A DNA stretch of 64,000 bases from Dehalococcoidia bacterium. GTDB lineage: Bacteria > Chloroflexota > Dehalococcoidia > Lucifugimonadales > GCA-2712585. The notes below the pieces were generated by a model, which ran no database searches, had not been told where the DNA came from, and worked only from the letters and a program-made list of their open reading frames with translations. Of this stretch, positions 10,668 to 57,729 are shown one piece after another (the stretch's first letter is position 1; every line of letters starts with the position of its first letter). The DNA lies in contig OZ253467.1 of assembly GCA_965261665.1 (NCBI GenBank), positions 1,217,926-1,281,925 on the forward strand, in the 5' to 3' direction. Made by a program: the position numbers and the translations under genes.

Positions 10668-11100
10668 GGAGGGGTTCCTGCCCCCGTTTTCACGAGGGCA
10701 GGCTCTACGTGGGAACAACGGAGGGAGGGATGGGTCCCCGTCCCCCGTCTTCACGGGGCAGGATCTCGACGCGAGGACAAGGTGGGGAAGGGCGACAAGA
10801 TTTCTCGACTCCGCTGCGCTGTGCTCGGAATGATATGTGTGAGGTGGGGAAAGAGGATGGGGATGGATTTCCGCCGCGGCGGGAACAACGGAGGGAAAGA
10901 TGGGTCCCCGCATGCGGAGACCTTTGCATAACTACCGAAACGCATTCAGATAGTGGTGTGGGACGACTCTTGCCATAGCTAAATCATGGGATTCTGGATT
11001 CCGGCCTTCGCCGGAATGACGGATATGCAAAGGTCTCCATGCGCGAGGACACTGGAGGGTGCCCCCCTGAAGGGGGAGGGAAAGAGGGGGAGGGGATGAA
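10668..11100 (+). repeat. mosaic of short hairpin repeat families with a nested MITE
   Basis: ggttcctGCCCCCGttttcaCGAGGGCaggctct...gggaacaacgg is at 10671-10725, with related copies at 10727-10782 and 10858-10895. A gatttctcgactccgc...ggaatga element is at 10794-10836. A gggtccccgcatgc...gcgaggac element is split by the MITE. Confidence 0.85.
10916..11038 (-). mobile_element. 123-bp MITE, copy 1
   Basis: The terminal inverted repeats are GGAGACCTTTGCATAAC (10916-10932) and GATATGCAAAGGTCTCC (11022-11038). It is flanked by a 4-bp direct repeat ATGC (10912-10915 and 11039-11042). Removing the element and one ATGC restores gggtccccgcatgcgcgaggac. The internal gtcattccggc..ggaatccag hairpin is inverted relative to copy 2. 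Confidence 0.8.
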
Positions 11101-15450: not shown

Positions 15451-15627
15451 GGATTCCTGCACCCGTCTTCATGGGGGGCAGGCTCTTCGTGGGAATGATG
15501 GGTGTGAGTTGGGAGGTTAGGGGGGTGACTTACGACGGGCGACCACGAGGGTCGCCCCTACAGGAGAGGGGGAAGGGTTCCCGCCCCCGTCTTCACGGGG
15601 GCAGGCTCTTCGCGAGAACAACGGAGG
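15451..15627 (+). repeat. composite repeat: GCCCCCG-hairpin element / linker / REP hairpin / GCCCCCG-hairpin element
   Basis: ggattcctgcacccgtcttcatggggggcaggctcttcgtgggaa; then gggaggttaggggggtgacttacgac; then GGGCGACCACGAGGGTCGCCCCTAC (15537-15561); then gggttcccGCCCCCGtcttcaCGGGGGCaggctcttcgcgagaacaacgg. The architecture matches the 133-bp unit at 57055-57650. Confidence 0.85.
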
Positions 15628-15800
15628 CGGGGGCGTGGGATGGGTGGCGCTCAGGATGACTTGTAGAGGATCTGGGAAGACGGGCGAGGGGGAATTTAGG
15701 GTTTGAGGTGGCGGATGGAGGGCAGGGCGCGACGGAGCAGAAACTCTATTGGTAATGACTATGGAGGGCGGGAGGCCATACGCCGAGGTTTTCCAGCGCT

Positions 15801-31131: not shown

Positions 31132-31498
31132 GGGGATGGATTCCCGCCTTCGGAGACCTTTACATAACCGTCATTCCGGCCCTGAGCCAGAATCCAGAGG
31201 TGGGGATTTAGGATTGAACCCCATGCCTATTCTGTCCAATATGGTCTCTCACTAGCAGTTATGCAAAGGTCTCCCTTCGCGGGAAAAACGGATAGGGAGG
31301 GCAACCATAAGGGTTGGACCAGCGGGGCCAGGCATGGATTTCCGCCGATGTCTTTACGGGGGTGGGCTATGTGGGGAATGGATTCTCGCCCCAGTCTTCA
31401 CGAGAGCAGGCTCTTCGCGGGAAAAACCGGGGGGGAGAAGAGTATCGTGAGGGGGACGATATTCCGCGGGAATGTCAGTGGGGGTGAAGGGTGGGGGA
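31132..31498 (+). repeat. mosaic of hairpin repeats with a nested MITE
   Basis: A ggattcccgccttc...cttcgcgggaa hairpin is split by the MITE. gggaatggattctcgccccagtcttcacgagagcaggctcttcgcggg is at about 31375. Confidence 0.8.
31152..31274 (+). mobile_element. 123-bp MITE, copy 2
   Basis: The terminal inverted repeats are GGAGACCTTTACATAAC (31152-31168) and GTTATGCAAAGGTCTCC (31258-31274). A 4-bp direct repeat CTTC is at 31148-31151 and 31275-31278. Removing the element restores the hairpin TTCCCGC-CTTC-GCGGGAA. Confidence 0.8.
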
Positions 31499-32283
31499 GG
31501 GCGACCACAAGGGTCGCCCCTACAGAAGAGGGGACGGAGCGGCATGATGTTGGAGGGGGAAGGGTGGTTCACGAACCGCCCCTGCGGGGGGTTGGTCGCA
31601 CGGTCGCATGTAACGGGCGACCACAAGGGTCGCCCCTACGGGAAGGGGGGACGGAGTGGGATGATGTTTGAGGGAAGGGCGGTTCACGAACCGCCCCTAC
31701 GGGGGGTTGGTCGCACGGTCGCATGTAACGGGCGAGCACAAGGGACGCCCCTACGGGAAGAGGGGACGGAGAGGCATGATGTTGGAGGGGGAAAGGCGGT
31801 CCCCGAACCGCCCCTACGGGGGGTTGGTCGCACGGTCGCATGTAACGGGCGACCACAAGGGACGTCCCTACGAGAAGAGGGGATGGAGAGGCATGATGTT
31901 GGAGGGGGAAAGGCGGTTCCCGAACCGCCCCTACGGGGGGTTGTCGCACGGTCGCATGTAACGGGCGATCACGAGGGACGCCCCTATGGTAAGGGGGGAC
32001 GGAGTGGGATGACGTGGGAAGGGGAAGGGTGGTTCCCGAACCGCTCCTATGGGGGTTGGCCGCACGGTCGCATGTAACGGGCGATCACGAGGGACGCCCC
32101 TACGGGAAGAATGGACGGAGTGGGATGACGTGGGAGAGGAAAGGGCGGTTCCCGAACCGCCCCTACGGGGGGTTGGCCGCACGGTCGCATGTAACGGGCG
32201 ACCACGAGGGACGCCCCTACGGGAAGAATGGACGGAGTGGGATGACGTGGGAGAGGAAAGGGCGGTTCGGGAACGGCCCCTAC
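31499..32283 (+). repeat. higher-order tandem array: 7 units of about 116 bp, each with two different REP-like hairpins
   Basis: GGGCGACCACAAGGGTCGCCCCTAC-type hairpins start at 31499, 31615, 31730, 31847, 31963, 32079 and 32196. They alternate with GGG(C/T)GGTTC(A/C)CGAACCGCCCCTAC-type hairpins. The linkers are conserved (..acggagyggsatgatgttggaggg.. and ggggggttggtcgcacggtcgcatgtaac). Confidence 0.9.
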
Positions 32284-32393
32284 GAATTGCCAAGAACGTC
32301 GGCGTCAAGAGCATAGTGGCGGTCTATTTGCATAGTAATGGCGGGTATGGAGTTGTGAGGGGATTGGGCCGGAATTGCGGATGGGCCAGCTTG

Positions 32394-39393: not shown

Positions 39394-39444
39394 CCCCCTC
39401 TTGTTCCTGCGAAGGCAGGAATCCACTCCTCTCCCACTCCACCC

Positions 39445-39555
39445 GTCATTCCGGCGAAAGCCGGAATCCAGACCCCACATTAGCCATGCCCTTTGTGCTC
39501 CCCACGACGCTAACCAAAACCCCACCGGTGGGGGCGGGTTTCAAACCCGCCCATT
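39445..39555 (+). repeat. gtcattccggcgaaagccggaatccag hairpin plus a degenerate REP-like hairpin
   Basis: 39445-39471 holds the stem CCGGC-gaaa-GCCGG. GGGCGGGTTTCAAACCCGCCC is at 39532-39552, followed by ATTC instead of CTAC. Confidence 0.8.
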
Positions 39556-44044: not shown

Positions 44045-45448
44045 ATGAGTGGAATGGATCTGGCAAATGGCACTGTTGCGGGCTTTGCGGGCCCGTTGAA
44101 GTCCGGGGAGCTTTCTTCGGTGGAGTTGACGCGGGCGACCCTTGAGCGCATTGATCGAGTAGACGGGCCGCTGAAGGGGTTCACAACGGTCACGGGGGAC
44201 TATGCGCTTGAGCGGGCGCGGGCCGCGGAGGAGGAGATCCGGAGAGGCCAGTATAGGGGGCCGCTTCACGGCATTCCATACACTCTCAAGGACCTCATAG
44301 ACACGGCGGGGATTCGCACCACCTATGGGTACGAGAGCCACGAGGACTACGTGCCACGGACGAGTGCGCGGGTGCACGAACTGATGGAAAAGGCGGGCGC
44401 TATTCTGGTGGGGAAGGTGAATTGCCACTTCCGCCGGGACGTGGTGGTGACGTGTTTTAACCCGTGGGACATAAGCCGGTCACCGGGGCATTCGAGCGCG
44501 GGTTCGGGGTTGGCGGTTGCAGCGTCGATGGGGCTAGTGTCCATCGGGTCCGACACGGGCGGGTCGGTGCGGATACCGGCGGCTTGGAGTGGGGTAGTGG
44601 GATTGCGGGCAACATTTGGACTTATCAGCCGGCACAATCTCTTTGGCCCGTCCTGGTCCTTCGATCAAGCCGGCCCCCTAGCCAAAACGGTGGAGGATAC
44701 GGCGCTGGCATTGCAGGCGCTGGCGGTGCACGATCCCGAGGATCCGGTGAGTCTGACGGGGCGGTTCCCGGACTATCGGGCGGCGCTGGAAGGCGATATT
44801 GAGGGCGTGAAGGTTGGGGTGTTGGAGGAGTACGTGGGCGGTGGCTGCACGGAGGAAGTGGAGCGGGCGGTGCGAAGGGCCGTGGCGGTCCTTTCGGACA
44901 TGGGTGCAGAGGTGGAGGAGGTATCCATTGAAGGAGCGGCAGGGGTTTCGGACATTCACAACACGATTGTGGAGCCGGAATCCGCCGTCTACTATCGGGA
45001 GACATTTTCTCCAGAGAGATTGGCGAGGATAGACGCAGACATGAAGTTGCGGCTGGAGCGGGGGGCCGCCATACCCATGGCCGATTATCTGGATGCTCAA
45101 CGACGGTTGGCGCTTCTCAAGAGGGAGACGGCGCGGGTGATGAGGCAGGTGGACGTGGTGGTCTCGCCAACGTCTTTAACGACGGCGTTGAAAGTGCCGG
45201 AGACGCGGGGGATGACTGAGGTCCGAGGACGCCGGGTGCCGGCGGGGTCTTTGAGTCTGGCGTGTACGGCCATAGCGTCGGACGTGGGACTGCCGGCGAT
45301 TTCCGTTCCGTGCGGATTTGGAGAAGGGCCTCTGCCCATCGGTCTGCACATAATGGGCAGACACCGTGAGGAAGGGTTGGTGCTGCGGGTGGCCCATGCT
45401 TACGAACAGGCGACGGGGTGGCATAGGTTTCGGCCATCGTTGGGTTAG
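44045..45448 (+). CDS. amidase (amidase-signature family, GatA-like)
   Basis: LHGIPYTLKDL and GHSSAGSGLAVAASMGLVSIGSDTGGSVRIPAA (GGSS/GSD signature). The start is at the ATG at 44045 or 44054. Confidence 0.9.
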   Translation: MSGMDLANGTVAGFAGPLKSGELSSVELTRATLERIDRVDGPLKGFTTVTGDYALERARAAEEEIRRGQYRGPLHGIPYTLKDLIDTAGIRTTYGYESHEDYVPRTSARVHELMEKAGAILVGKVNCHFRRDVVVTCFNPWDISRSPGHSSAGSGLAVAASMGLVSIGSDTGGSVRIPAAWSGVVGLRATFGLISRHNLFGPSWSFDQAGPLAKTVEDTALALQALAVHDPEDPVSLTGRFPDYRAALEGDIEGVKVGVLEEYVGGGCTEEVERAVRRAVAVLSDMGAEVEEVSIEGAAGVSDIHNTIVEPESAVYYRETFSPERLARIDADMKLRLERGAAIPMADYLDAQRRLALLKRETARVMRQVDVVVSPTSLTTALKVPETRGMTEVRGRRVPAGSLSLACTAIASDVGLPAISVPCGFGEGPLPIGLHIMGRHREEGLVLRVAHAYEQATGWHRFRPSLG

Positions 45449-45454
45449 GGGAGA

Positions 45455-46075
45455 GTTGGGTGGGGGTGCTACGGGATGGCGTGGGGGAACGGGCGGTTCG
45501 CGAACCGCCCCTACCAGATGGTTGTCAGAGGGAATGGGGGATGGGTCCCCGCATGCGCGAGGACAACGGAGGGGAGGGGGCGATGGGTGAGGCGGGACGT
45601 GATGGCGGGGGGAACGGGCGGTTCGCGAACCGCCCCTACCAGATGGTTGTCAGAGGGAATGGGGGATGGGTCCCCGCATGCGCGAGGACAACGGGGGAGG
45701 GGGGCCGATGGGTCGAGGCGGGACGTGATGGCGGGGGGAACGGGCGGTTCGCGAACCGCCCGTTCCAGATGGTTGTTAGAGGGAATGGGGGATGGGTCCC
45801 CGCATGCGCGAGGACAACGGGGGGAGGGGGGCCGATGGGTCGAGGCGGGACGTGATGGCGGGGGGAACGGGCGGTTCGCGAACCGCCCGTTCCAGATGGT
45901 TGTTAGAGGGAATGAGGGGATGGGTCCCCGCATGCGCGAGGACAACGGAGGGGAGGGGGCGATGGGTGAGGCGGGACGTGATGGCGGGGGGAACGGGCGG
46001 TTCGCGAACCGCCCGTTCCAGATGGTTGTCAGAGGGAATGAGGGGATGGGTCCCCGCATGCGCGAGGACAAGAGG
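45455..46075 (+). repeat. higher-order tandem array: 5 units of about 126 bp (REP hairpin plus gggtccccgcatgcgcgaggac element)
   Basis: GGGCGGTTCGCGAACCGCCC starts at 45491, 45616, 45742, 45869 and 45995. It is followed by CTAC or GTTC, then cagatggttgt(c/t)agagggaatg(a/g)gggatgggtccccgcatgcgcgaggacaa. Confidence 0.9.
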
Positions 46076-54483: not shown

Positions 54484-54550
54484 AGGGGATGGGTCCCCGC
54501 ATGCGCGAGGACACGGGGAGGGGGACGGGCGGTTCGCGAACCGCCCGTAC
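54484..54550 (+). repeat. gggtccccgcatgcgcgaggac element plus REP-like hairpin
   Basis: ggggatgggtccccgcatgcgcgaggacac, then GGGCGGTTCGCGAACCGCCCGTAC (54527-54550). Confidence 0.9.
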
Positions 54551-56915: not shown

Positions 56916-57054
56916 GCAGGATGGTGGGTGCTTTATGGTCACTCACCAGATGACTAGCTAGCAGCCCCATTTCACCCTCCTTCCTAATGTGCGTGGGTGG
57001 TCCTATTTTTTGCGGCTCAGAACCCGGGTGAGAAGTTGGGGTAAGGATAATGAG

Positions 57055-57729
57055 ATTCTTCGTCTTCACAAGGGCGGGCTCTGCGCGGGAACAACGGAAG
57101 GGGGCGGGAGGTTAGGGGGTGTCTTAAGACGGGCAGCCACAAGGGCTGCCCCTACGGATAGGGGGGGAAGGAGCGAGGAGGGGTTCCGGCCCACGTTTTC
57201 ACAAGGGCAGGCTCTGCGTGGGAACAACGGGTGGGGGCGGGAGGTTAGGGGGTGTCTTAAGACGGGCAGCCACAAGGGCTGTCCCTACGGATAGGTGGGC
57301 GAAGGAGCGAGGAGGGGTTCCGGCCCCCGTCTTCATGGGGCGGGCTCTGCGCGGGAACAACGGAAGGGGCCGGGAGGTTAGGGGGTGTCTTAAGACGGGC
57401 AGCCACAAGGGCTGCCCCTACGGATAGGGGGGTGAAGGAGCGAGGAGGGGTTCCTGCCCCCGTCTTCACTGGGGCAGGCTCTGCGCGGGAATAACGGAGG
57501 GGGGAGGGAGGTTAGGGTGTGTCTTAAGACGGGCAGCCACAAGGGCTGCCCCTACGGATAGGGGGGCGAAGGAGCGAGGGTGGGTTCCCGCCCCGTCTTC
57601 ACGGGGGGGCAGGCTCTGCGCGGGAACAGCGGAGGGGGCAGGATGACAGGTGGGAGGGCGTTGACGAAGTGACAGAGGAGTGAGGATAGGGTGTCGATGA
57701 TGGAGGGCAGGTTTCAAACCTGCCCCTAT
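57055..57729 (+). repeat. higher-order tandem array: 4-5 units of about 133 bp (GCCCCCG-hairpin element plus REP hairpin), then one extra REP hairpin
   Basis: GGGCAGCCACAAGGGCTG(C/T)CCCTAC starts at 57131, 57264, 57397 and 57531. It alternates with ggttcc(g/t/c)gcccccgtcttca(c/t)ggggcaggctctgcgcgggaa(c/t)aacgg. GGGCAGGTTTCAAACCTGCCCCTAT is at 57705-57729. Confidence 0.9.

Follow-up and report, generated by a model that had tools for sequence, protein, structure and literature searches.

IS1397 and ISKpn1 encode a two-ORF, frameshifted transposase of the IS3 family, have TG…CA ends and leave duplications of 3–4 bp. In Enterobacteriaceae, these two insertion sequences insert in the centre of REP sequences (palindromic units) with a short target duplication and owe their specificity to the transposase (PMC1525189, citing Wilde et al. 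2003). The same holds at the level of the target for ISRm22, an IS4-family element of Sinorhizobium meliloti, every copy of which lies in a REP sequence, with the palindromic axis as the precise point of insertion (PMC1525189). A looser association ('type 2') has been described for ISNm1106/IS1106 of Neisseria meningitidis, with 4 of 7 and 7 of 14 copies near or adjacent to REP sequences (PMC1525189), and the IS110-family elements IS621 and ISPpu9/10 as well as the Neisseria Nf prophage integrate in REP/dRS3 hairpins (PMC1525189, PMC1797815), the dRS3 repeat of Neisseria being ATTCCC-N8-GGGAAT (PMC1797815). Classical MITEs (Correia/CREE, Nezha, Chunjie, RUP) are small and non-coding, with terminal inverted repeats (TIRs), target duplications, a long-stem fold and filled and empty sites (PMC3184786). 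The elements described below have the same traits and differ from the classical MITEs in carrying a copy of their own target class. To our knowledge, targeting of hairpin-repeat centres has not been reported for classical MITEs; the target of Correia elements is TA.

We analysed a 64-kb stretch of DNA (the window) that holds two such elements. They are very probably MITEs, non-autonomous derivatives of a ~1.2-kb IS5-family lineage, common among marine Chloroflexota and those associated with sponges, that targets the dyad centres of palindromic repeats. The system belongs to a known kind, that of insertion sequences and MITEs targeting REP-type palindromic repeats. It resembles IS1397 and ISKpn1 in its insertion at palindromic-repeat centres with a short duplication; however, the likeness to IS3-family elements drawn in the first-pass annotation does not extend to the transposase, as the partner found here has a single-ORF DDE transposase of the IS5 family, GAGACC…GGTCTC ends, 5–6-bp duplications that include the closing pair of the hairpin, and many MITE derivatives. 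ISRm22 differs in belonging to another IS family, with no MITEs described and no spacer-linked variation in duplication length reported. ISNm1106/IS1106 is also of the IS5 family, but it does not insert at the dyad centre and its host phylum is unrelated. IS621, ISPpu9/10 and the Nf prophage rely on DEDD recombinases, lack TIRs and leave the target unduplicated; their chemistry is unrelated. REP/REPIN-RAYT units, which go with tnpA(REP), and IS200/IS605-type elements, which have subterminal hairpins and insert on the 3' side of a short motif, likewise lack TIRs and duplications, whereas both TIRs and 5–6-bp duplications are present here.

As drawn in the first-pass annotation, the two copies lie at 10916–11038 and 31152–31274, are 123 bp each and have matching inverted-repeat ends, GGAGACCTTTGCATAAC / GGAGACCTTTGCATATC in copy 1 and GGAGACCTTTACATAAC / GGAGACCTTTGCATAAC in copy 2, with one TIR mismatch in each copy. 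By chance, 0.09 matches to the TIR pattern would be expected in the window, where there are 4; the ends are therefore not fortuitous. The flanks are direct rather than inverted repeats (ATGC/ATGC for copy 1, CTTC/CTTC for copy 2). With the boundaries revised as explained below, the features are as follows.

10917–11037, no strand: MITE copy 1 (GAGACC…GGTCTC), 121 bp, with 16-bp TIRs at 10917–10932 and 11022–11037
31153–31273, no strand: MITE copy 2, of a different subfamily, 121 bp, with TIRs at 31153–31168 and 31258–31273
10911–10916, no strand: left target duplication CATGCG of copy 1 (ATGC loop plus the closing C/G pair, as read from tip/flank covariation)
11038–11043, no strand: right target duplication CATGCG of copy 1
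31147–31152, no strand: left target duplication CCTTCG of copy 2
31274–31279, no strand: right target duplication CCTTCG of copy 2
10994–11020, minus strand: subterminal hairpin of copy 1, GTCATTCCGGCGAAGGCCGGAATCCAG, itself a target-class hairpin
31170–31196, plus strand: decayed subterminal hairpin of copy 2, gtcattccggccctgagccagaatccag

The internal hairpin had been noticed in both copies, as had their opposite orientation and their divergence, which amounts to 76% identity over the whole element and 70% over the interior. Neither copy has an ORF of its own or any protein-family signal, and at 121–123 bp both fall under the limit of about 400 bp for non-coding bacterial MITEs, with which they also share TIRs and a target-site duplication. 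Their folding z-scores are −4.9 and −4.1. In the window alone, a 123-bp element with 17-bp TIRs and a 4-bp duplication, as originally proposed, fits equally well as a 121-bp element with 16-bp TIRs and a 6-bp duplication (CATGCG; CCTTCG). We favour the latter, in which each boundary appears to move in by one base, because of a comparison of copies across the family: where the tips are not G/C, they are the same as the flanking target bases in 17 of 19 cases, so the tip bases are best read as part of the target and not of the element. Since the non-G/C tips copy the flanks, a duplication of 4 or 3 bp that corresponds to the loop alone was replaced by one of the loop plus its closing pair. The hairpin centre stands as the target, and 6 bp fits the duplication better than 4 bp.

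Both copies split a hairpin, and related intact hairpins lie elsewhere in the window.

10902–10910, plus strand: left stem gggtccccg of the split copy-1 hairpin
11044–11050, plus strand: right stem cgaggac of the split copy-1 hairpin
31140–31146, plus strand: left stem attcccg of the split, dRS3-like copy-2 hairpin
31280–31286, plus strand: right stem cgggaaa of the split copy-2 hairpin
45543–46069, plus strand: tandem array of 125–128-bp units with five intact copy-1 target hairpins (45543, 45668, 45794, 45922, 46048), related empty sites
54491–54512, plus strand: sixth intact copy-1 target hairpin
39404–39471, plus strand: two solo target-class hairpins, TTCCTGCGAAGGCAGGAA at 39404–39421 and GTCATTCCGGCGAAAGCCGGAATCCAG at 39445–39471

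Removal of copy 1 together with one repeat restores the 22-mer GGGTCCCCGCATGCGCGAGGAC. The first-pass annotation had recognised both the ATGC flanks and the restored element, yet it counted four intact instances, at coordinates 2–4 nt off, where there are six (the five of the array and 54491); an additional copy with one mismatch lies at 2296. For copy 2, the CTTC flanks and the split hairpin TTCCCGC-CTTC-GCGGGAA were seen as reported. No other intact instance of this exact hairpin is present in the window, the nearest being at 39404–39421 and 10868–10885. It is frequent in related genomes, in the analysed loci of which TCCCGC-N4-GCGGGA occurs 138 times, with CTTC or GAAG as the loop in 13 cases. 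The window hairpins ATTCCCGC-N4-GCGGGAAT fit the dRS3 formula of Neisseria, and the hairpin arrays with short spacers resemble Neisseria NIMEs. The solo hairpin at 39445–39471 is the internal hairpin of the MITE except for its loop. The window as a whole is crowded with nested and tandem hairpin repeat families, and a module of 23–29 nt without TIRs also fills the loops of the same hairpins; the 29-nt form was considered as polymorphic, a call dropped because the alignment of the repeat array to a relative (L126) is too shuffled for it.

A genome-collection scan for the TIRs returned at least 117 loci, mostly in MAGs of sponge-associated Dehalococcoidia/Chloroflexota. Among the matches listed, the same TIRs delimit at least some 50 additional short elements as well as more than 12 full-length insertion sequences of ~1.2 kb. 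The copies are dispersed over unrelated sites, as expected of bacterial MITEs; the window has two of them, and dozens more are spread over at least 15 further genomes. A direct repeat is lacking at 40 of 107 TIR pairs; among these 40 are chance pairs from unrelated phyla as well as cases of chimeric flanks or of mispaired ends. Metagenomes searched with both TIRs yielded only 2 matches, the 8 isolated single matches from a scan of viral contigs were judged to be chance, and no paper turned up in a full-text literature search for the TIR sequence. Copy 1 shares 99.2% identity with an element at another site in another species-level genome (L046:4534–4656); this locus is not syntenic with the window and shares with it one alignable gene, 92% identical. 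We take the match as a sign of recent spread. Copy 2 is 96.7% identical to L105:1165–1287. The same element was found in unrelated hairpin families, and in L076 one MITE occupies the loop of the equivalent subterminal hairpin within a second MITE, so that the MITE's own hairpin serves as a target too. Tandem partial copies were observed at L037:2241–2552.

Full-length elements with the same ends were found in L013, L037 (two copies), L041, L093, L104 and L133–L163. They are 1198–1233 bp long, with short TIRs and a single ORF of 322–341 aa. Its product contains PF05598 (DUF772, ~1e-27) and PF01609 (DDE_Tnp_1, E = 1e-30 to 1e-31), and it matches the NCBIfam model for the IS5 family, NF033581, with E = 1e-88 to 1e-91 (297–306 bits against a cut-off of 140). 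The type of DDE transposase, the single ORF, the length within ~1–1.5 kb and the short TIRs all place the partner in the IS5 family. E. coli IS5 and plasmid IS5-family elements share its DUF772 plus DDE_Tnp_1 architecture, ~1.2-kb length and short TIRs; the nearest annotated plasmid relatives of the transposase are 45% identical at the protein level (Rhizobium). IS5 leaves a fixed 4-bp duplication at YTAR sites, whereas the duplication here is 5, 6 or 7 bp and set by the hairpin spacer. This difference from the IS5 subgroup leaves membership of the IS5 family intact, as the family is defined by its transposase. The GAGACCTTTGCATAAC-ended 1.2-kb elements of related genomes are thus the autonomous counterparts, with the same ends, that bacterial MITEs have. 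In the 64-kb window, tblastn with the IS5-type transposase finds no partner, in agreement with the first-pass annotation. One further candidate for an autonomous partner, L053:2766–3944, was rejected, since here an IS30-family insertion sequence is nested within a MITE.

To describe the targets, we distinguished two hairpin classes, ..CCG|CGG.. (class A), which holds both window copies, and ..CTCC|GGAG.. (class B), which is absent from the window. At 38 of the 54 unique sites with direct repeats, the repeat lies at the centre of a GC-rich hairpin, defined by at least 5 of 7 complementary bases just outside the repeat, and the stems are weak at the remaining 16. As a background, 0.13% of positions fall in hairpin loops closed by a perfect stem of 6 bp or more, and unrelated flanks are expected to share a 3-mer in 2.7% of cases. 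The duplication is 6 bp at 17/17 class-A sites (..CCG|C-N4-G|CGG..) and 5 bp at 13/14 class-B sites (..CTCC|C-N3-G|GGAG..). Both lengths were found with an identical transposase, P0175, which is associated with a TTGAG duplication at L153 and TACAAG at L158, and within one 124-bp MITE subfamily of one genome (L054 versus L081, L039 and L076), showing that one machinery yields both. The rule of loop plus closing pair has exceptions: the spacer of L013 is 5 nt long and its duplication CTCAAG, and the P0238 insertion-sequence copies lie in 6-nt spacers (CAGAG + gc). All 12 unique full-length insertion-sequence sites with direct repeats are in class-B-like or weak hairpins, and none of the full-length copies sampled is in a class-A hairpin. 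A 'like-seeks-like' rule, by which an internal class-A hairpin would direct an element to class-A targets, was discarded since 144-bp MITEs with class-A hairpins occupy class-B targets.

These data point to the following scheme. A transposase provided in trans would bind the 16-bp ends GAGACCTTTGCATAAC, and the element would integrate where short, GC-rich palindromic repeats of the REP/dRS3-like hairpin type have their dyad centre. The two strand transfers would each fall one bp inside the stem, 5' of a pyrimidine (usually C), which is why repair would duplicate the loop together with its closing pair, giving 6 bp where the loop has 4 nt, as in both window copies, and 5 bp where it has 3 nt. 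We lean slightly towards a target read as structure, i.e. an extruded hairpin or cruciform or strongly distorted DNA, over a duplex sequence of fixed length, because the stagger follows the spacer instead of being fixed; the observations that indirectly suggest it are the spacer-tracking duplication length, the T·G closing pairs and the use of two stem families. A more detailed version is tentative and, taken as a whole, rather unlikely: the IS5-family DDE transposase would read a hairpin or cruciform and cut one bp inside the stem, with a duplication of loop + 2 (5, 6 or 7 bp), and each insertion would seed a new landing pad because the MITEs carry the target hairpin, so that elements nest.

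The strongest alternative keeps the same MITE/IS5 system and lets a transposase dimer contact two inverted half-sites in duplex DNA (…C|C-N3-4-G|G…), with a spacing tolerance of one bp and no extrusion. It has a realistic chance of being correct, if somewhat short of even. Duplications nearly always begin with C/T and end with G/A, and a pyrimidine 5' of each cut would amount to a sequence rule. Moreover, L133, L138 and L140 have 6-nt spacers in which the 5-bp duplication falls on a local CC-NNN-GG dyad and not on the centre of the long stems, and the weak stems at 16/54 sites are also in line with duplex recognition. Several DDE insertion sequences are known to vary by one bp in the length of their duplications, which such a tolerance would match. 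However, duplications of 5, 6 and 7 bp track the spacer, and in B-form DNA this would shift both the distance between the active sites and the helical phase. Furthermore, the closing 'pairs' are frequently T·G (TTCTG, TTGAG, TACAAG, TTCCG), as expected of hairpin wobble and not of a symmetric duplex, and two very different stem sequences are in use.

We compared the insertion sites with those of relatives. L126, which is syntenic with about 90% nucleotide identity, has no TIR; at the place of copy 1 it carries the intact hairpin gggtccccgCATCCGcgaggac (L126:3764–3785), with the loop ATCC versus ATGC (one base) and a surrounding repeat array that contains indels. Copy 2 is absent from L129 (93.6% nucleotide identity) and from L130, where its position is occupied by a different composite hairpin and not by a clean empty site. 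Presence and absence of the kind known for bacterial MITEs is therefore seen for copy 1 through L126, and for copy 2 as absence only. The first-pass annotation had proposed a non-autonomous element mobilised by a hairpin-targeting transposase, and this gains support from the further copies in public genomes, with the same TIRs, target duplications and hairpin centres, from the full-length, transposase-encoding insertion sequence with the same TIRs in related genomes, and from the intact hairpin in the syntenic relative that lacks copy 1.

The comparison also bears on whether the window copies are dead relics, i.e. genuine MITEs that have no partner left in this genome and no longer move. This is possible, although we find it doubtful. 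The transposase is absent from the window, each copy has a mismatch in its TIRs, the internal hairpin of copy 2 is decayed and the two copies are only 76% identical to each other, all as expected of relics. Both copies are, however, absent from relatives at 90–94% nucleotide identity, and the 99.2% match of copy 1 at another site and in another genome argues for recent movement or transfer. Elements of the favoured MITE/IS5 system may still be active in this genome.

A transposon-free origin is very improbable. A BIME/NIME-like palindromic mosaic, built by recombination, slippage or a REP-associated tyrosine transposase and with nested palindromes posing as 'TIRs', would suit the nested and tandem hairpin repeats of the window, the target-class hairpin within the element, the TIR-less module in the same hairpin loops and the tandem partial copies of L037. 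Yet the direct repeats match within a site and differ between sites, the same ends bound the 1.2-kb DDE-transposase elements with the same duplications and targets, and the same element is found in unrelated hairpin families. That the flanking hairpin arms, which are inverted repeats abutting the TIRs, are longer TIRs of the element and not a pre-existing target is ruled out with near certainty by arms that vary (gggtccccg, attcccg, ccctctcc) next to constant TIRs and by the far greater number of intact, insert-free hairpins, and the stretch from arm to TIR consists of direct rather than inverted repeats.

For the MITE/IS5 system favoured here, landing only at the centres of intergenic hairpin repeats spares genes and shows a way for a family of transposons to maintain itself in the compact genomes of symbionts. 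The family also constitutes a natural experiment on what fixes duplication length, as a single transposase makes duplications of 5 or 6 bp according to the spacer of the hairpin, which opens structure versus sequence recognition by DDE enzymes to direct testing. For annotation, a closing pair that mimics the tips of an element can place TIR and duplication boundaries drawn from a single genome one base off on each side. Because the elements are polymorphic between relatives of 90–94% identity, they could be used as strain markers for uncultured sponge Chloroflexota. Finally, in events that are not all independent, the insertion has the same orientation relative to an asymmetric hairpin in 12 of 15 cases, a suggestive bias; the 3 insertions that deviate are all of the copy-2 subfamily.

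The two MITEs in the window form a real, well-supported pair, and the sequence is as the first-pass annotation described it: two non-coding elements bounded by terminal inverted repeats (TIRs), with direct repeats at their edges and the inverted arms of a split hairpin further out. The inverted repeats at the ends of both, as first drawn, read GGAGACCTTT(G/A)CATA(A/T)C; chance would give 0.09 matches to this pattern in the window, and there are four.

10916-11038, copy 1 as first drawn, 123 bp, between ATGC and ATGC
31152-31274, copy 2 as first drawn, 123 bp, opposite orientation, between CTTC and CTTC
10994-11020, subterminal hairpin adjoining one TIR of copy 1, GTCATTCCGGCGAAGGCCGGAATCCAG
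31170-31196, decayed form of this hairpin adjoining one TIR of copy 2
39445-39471, solo hairpin, the copy-1 subterminal hairpin except for its loop

The copies are 76% identical overall and 70% in the interior. Removing copy 1 with one repeat restores GGGTCCCCGCATGCGCGAGGAC, which occurs intact six times in the window (45543, 45668, 45794, 45922, 46048 and 54491) and with one mismatch at 2296. Loops of perfect hairpins (stem ≥6 bp) cover just 0.0875% of window positions, so the chance of two accidental loop insertions is negligible.

A TIR scan of public genomes, one genome per species, gave at least 117 loci; among the matches listed, most are long-read Dehalococcoidia/Chloroflexota MAGs. By record titles and protein neighbours, uncultured Dehalococcoidia/Chloroflexota associated with sponges are the closest relatives. 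Pairing TIRs in the loci listed yielded at least about 80 bounded elements, with size modes at 123/124 bp and 144 bp and a class near 1.2 kb. The ~1.2-kb elements (L013:5292-6493, two copies in L037, a frameshifted one in L041, L093 and L104) encode one 322-341-aa protein each, with Pfam DUF772 and DDE_Tnp_1 domains and 297-306 bits against NCBIfam NF033581 (IS5-family transposase, cut-off 140). Contigs of four transposase clusters added about 30 further full-length elements, which measure 1198-1233 bp and share these ends, and up to 25-27 nt are common to MITE and IS ends. The transposase-encoding IS that the annotation had proposed to look for thus exists in related genomes, with the same ends and behaviour as the MITEs. 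The reading of MITEs in hairpin loops is supported with two corrections, one of which is the partner family: IS5, in place of the IS3-type precedent. As had been stated, the window lacks a transposase of this kind, no homologue of the IS5-type partner being found within its 64 kb. Public data hold >1,500 homologues at E ≤ 1e-60, any name given being only 'IS5 family transposase', and annotated relatives on plasmids are at best 45% identical. L053 was rejected as autonomous partner; at L053:2766-3944, a MITE of this family has an IS30-family IS (336-aa transposase) nested in its subterminal hairpin region.

The second correction concerns the boundaries. In the window alone, the outermost G…C of the 'TIR' can equally be read as the duplicated closing C·G pair of the target. 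Of tips that are not G/C, 17 of 19 match the target bases beside them, which lengthens the direct repeat by exactly two. ISs with an identical transposase carry tip T at some loci and tip C at others, each matching the local flank (L143 vs L146; L153/L158 vs L155/L157). As the non-G/C tips follow the target flanks, the element is, by this sequence comparison, GAGACCTTTGCATAAC…GTTATGCAAAGGTCTC with TIRs of 16 bp.

10917-11037, copy 1 as revised, CATGCG on both sides
31153-31273, copy 2 as revised, CCTTCG on both sides

The 4-bp duplication originally proposed becomes 6 bp in both window copies on this comparison, and the reconstructed empty sites are unchanged.

Among 54 unique sites having a direct repeat, the duplication is 5 bp at 26, 6 bp at 23, 7 bp at three, 4 bp at one and 9 bp at one. 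Insertion is centred on dyads, with at least 5 of 7 complementary bases directly outside the repeat at 38/54 sites, and the duplications are site-specific. Class A hairpins (..CCG|C-N4-G|CGG..), to which both window sites belong, show 6 bp at 17/17 sites; class B hairpins (..CTCC|C-N3-G|GGAG..) show 5 bp at 13 of 14, the remaining site combining 7 bp with a 5-nt loop. Hairpins without an insert are plentiful in both classes: those of the TCCCGC-N4-GCGGGA type have the 4-nt spacer in 138/146, and the commonest class B form is CTCTCC-N5-GGAGAG. Among the elements sampled, no full-length copies were seen in class A hairpins. Different enzymes do not account for the length difference, because the IS with transposase P0175 (TTGAG at L153, TACAAG at L158) and one 124-bp MITE subfamily of genome OY759972.1 (class B length at L054; class A length at L081, L039 and L076) each left both lengths.

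These data suggest a mechanism in which the transposase, supplied in trans, would bind the 16-bp ends; two strand transfers would occur one base pair into the stem on either side, and repair would duplicate the loop and its closing pair. We lean towards the target being recognised as an extruded or distorted hairpin, since the stagger of 5, 6 or 7 bp tracks the spacer. A serious rival is that a dimer reads duplex DNA at two half-sites whose spacing is flexible. Duplications begin with C (sometimes T) and finish with G (sometimes A), which places a pyrimidine 5' of each staggered cut, and this rule favours the duplex reading. So do the 6-nt spacers, an exception to the target rule, in which IS copies of P0238 use a local CC-NNN-GG dyad; the other exception is L013, with CTCAAG in a 5-nt spacer. 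A feature of mechanistic interest is that the hairpin spacer sets the duplication length.

Presence of the elements is lineage-specific. L126, a locus syntenic with the window (DUF3179, amidohydrolase, PGI; about 90% nt identity), has no TIR at ≤3 mismatches and carries an intact gggtccccgCATCCGcgaggac with the neighbouring hairpin of copy 1 on one side and its promoter-proximal sequence on the other; one loop base differs, and the repeats around it contain indels. The empty site expected in relatives is thus present for copy 1. For copy 2 the expectation is borne out in part: L129 (93.6% nt) aligns up to the element's first base, and TIRs are absent from both L129 and L130, but these two carry a different composite hairpin there, and not a clean empty site. 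Two further matches lie at other sites in CBDCSX010000002.1, a genome that shares a single alignable gene, 92% identical, with the window: L046:4534-4656 is 99.2% identical to copy 1 and L105:1165-1287 is 96.7% identical to copy 2. Two subfamilies, both shared by species-level lineages, are therefore represented in the window by one copy each, and 99.2% MITE identity against 92% for the gene points to recent bursts or transfer between co-resident symbionts. L046:4534-4656 and window 10916-11038 occupy different sites with different duplications.

IS5 itself makes a fixed 4-bp duplication, from which the partner departs although it belongs to the IS5 family by transposase. The system adds to known IS/MITE targeting of REP-type palindromes, which are hit by IS3 (IS1397, ISKpn1, ISPsy8), IS110 and IS256 families and, at the palindrome axis, by ISRm22 (IS4 family), with only a loose association for ISNm1106 (IS5 family) (PMC1525189). 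It works like IS1397 but is not a member of that group, its transposase being IS5-type and its ends not TG…CA. The formula of the Neisseria dRS3 repeat, ATTCCC-N8-GGGAAT, also describes the class A hairpin, and the window's arrays are NIME-like (PMC1797815). Full-text literature searches found no paper containing the TIR sequence and, for MITEs and insertion sequences in sponge Chloroflexi, a single paper with a different subject.

The MITE carries its own target class: its subterminal hairpin is class A, with a stem that covaries across subfamilies (CCGGC/GCCGG vs CCCGC/GCGGG). At L076:1683-1860, a 124-bp MITE sits in the subterminal-hairpin loop of a second MITE, a partial one with its right TIR 17 nt further on.

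Chimeric or reverse-complementary flanks are seen in several copies and would be expected if copies recombine with each other. Reverse-complementary instead of direct repeats (e.g. ACAA…TTGT, TCT…AGA) occur at L037:5313-5456, L157 and L155, as expected from inversion by recombination of oppositely oriented copies in like hairpins. In 12 of 15 class A insertions, the hairpin-bearing end of the MITE adjoins the GCGGGAATGAC / GCGAGGACAA side of the target; the other three (window copy 2, L046:5473 and L105:1165) are all members of the copy-2 subfamily. Insertion may be orientation-specific, although the events are not all independent. At L037:2241-2552, an 84-bp unit, made up of the target's left flank and the left half of one 144-bp MITE, is repeated three times in tandem, and one complete right half ends the series. 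Outside Chloroflexota, short elements with the same TIR occur in Nitrospinota MAGs (L020, L040, L049, L087, L096, L107), several from sponge-derived Nitrospinales genomes, and in a Bauldia litoralis MAG (L085) and a JGI metagenome (L131), the last two in class B hairpins and with duplications of 5 bp. Such a pattern suggests that the IS lineage is widely distributed or has spread horizontally.

The window has ~60% G+C and a very strong GC skew (+0.2 to +0.3), which is negative from about 36 to 42 kb, a stretch whose long ORFs are on the minus strand; the G-rich strand thus appears to be the coding strand throughout. Its intergenic regions are full of several short GC-rich hairpin families, often in tandem arrays.

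1950-2630, 31470-32290, 45410-46070 and 57030-57660, tandem arrays, units of 52, 116, 126 and 133 bp
10684-10708, 10741-10769, 15571-15646, 31376-31451 and 57044-57654, 23-29-nt module, roughly CCCCGTCTTCACGGGGGCAGGCTCTTC

The arrays are NIME/BIME-like, built from different hairpin modules (e.g. GGGCGCCCACAAGGGACGCCCCTAC, GGGCGGTTCGCGAACCGCCCCTAC), and create long spurious ORFs such as 31472-32077. The 23-29-nt module lacks TIRs and sits at the loop position of hairpin families targeted by the MITE; the array next to it is shuffled between the window and L126, and L129 has a shorter form, cccgcCTTCgtgagggcaggctCTTCgcggg, with a 13-nt insert between two CTTC.
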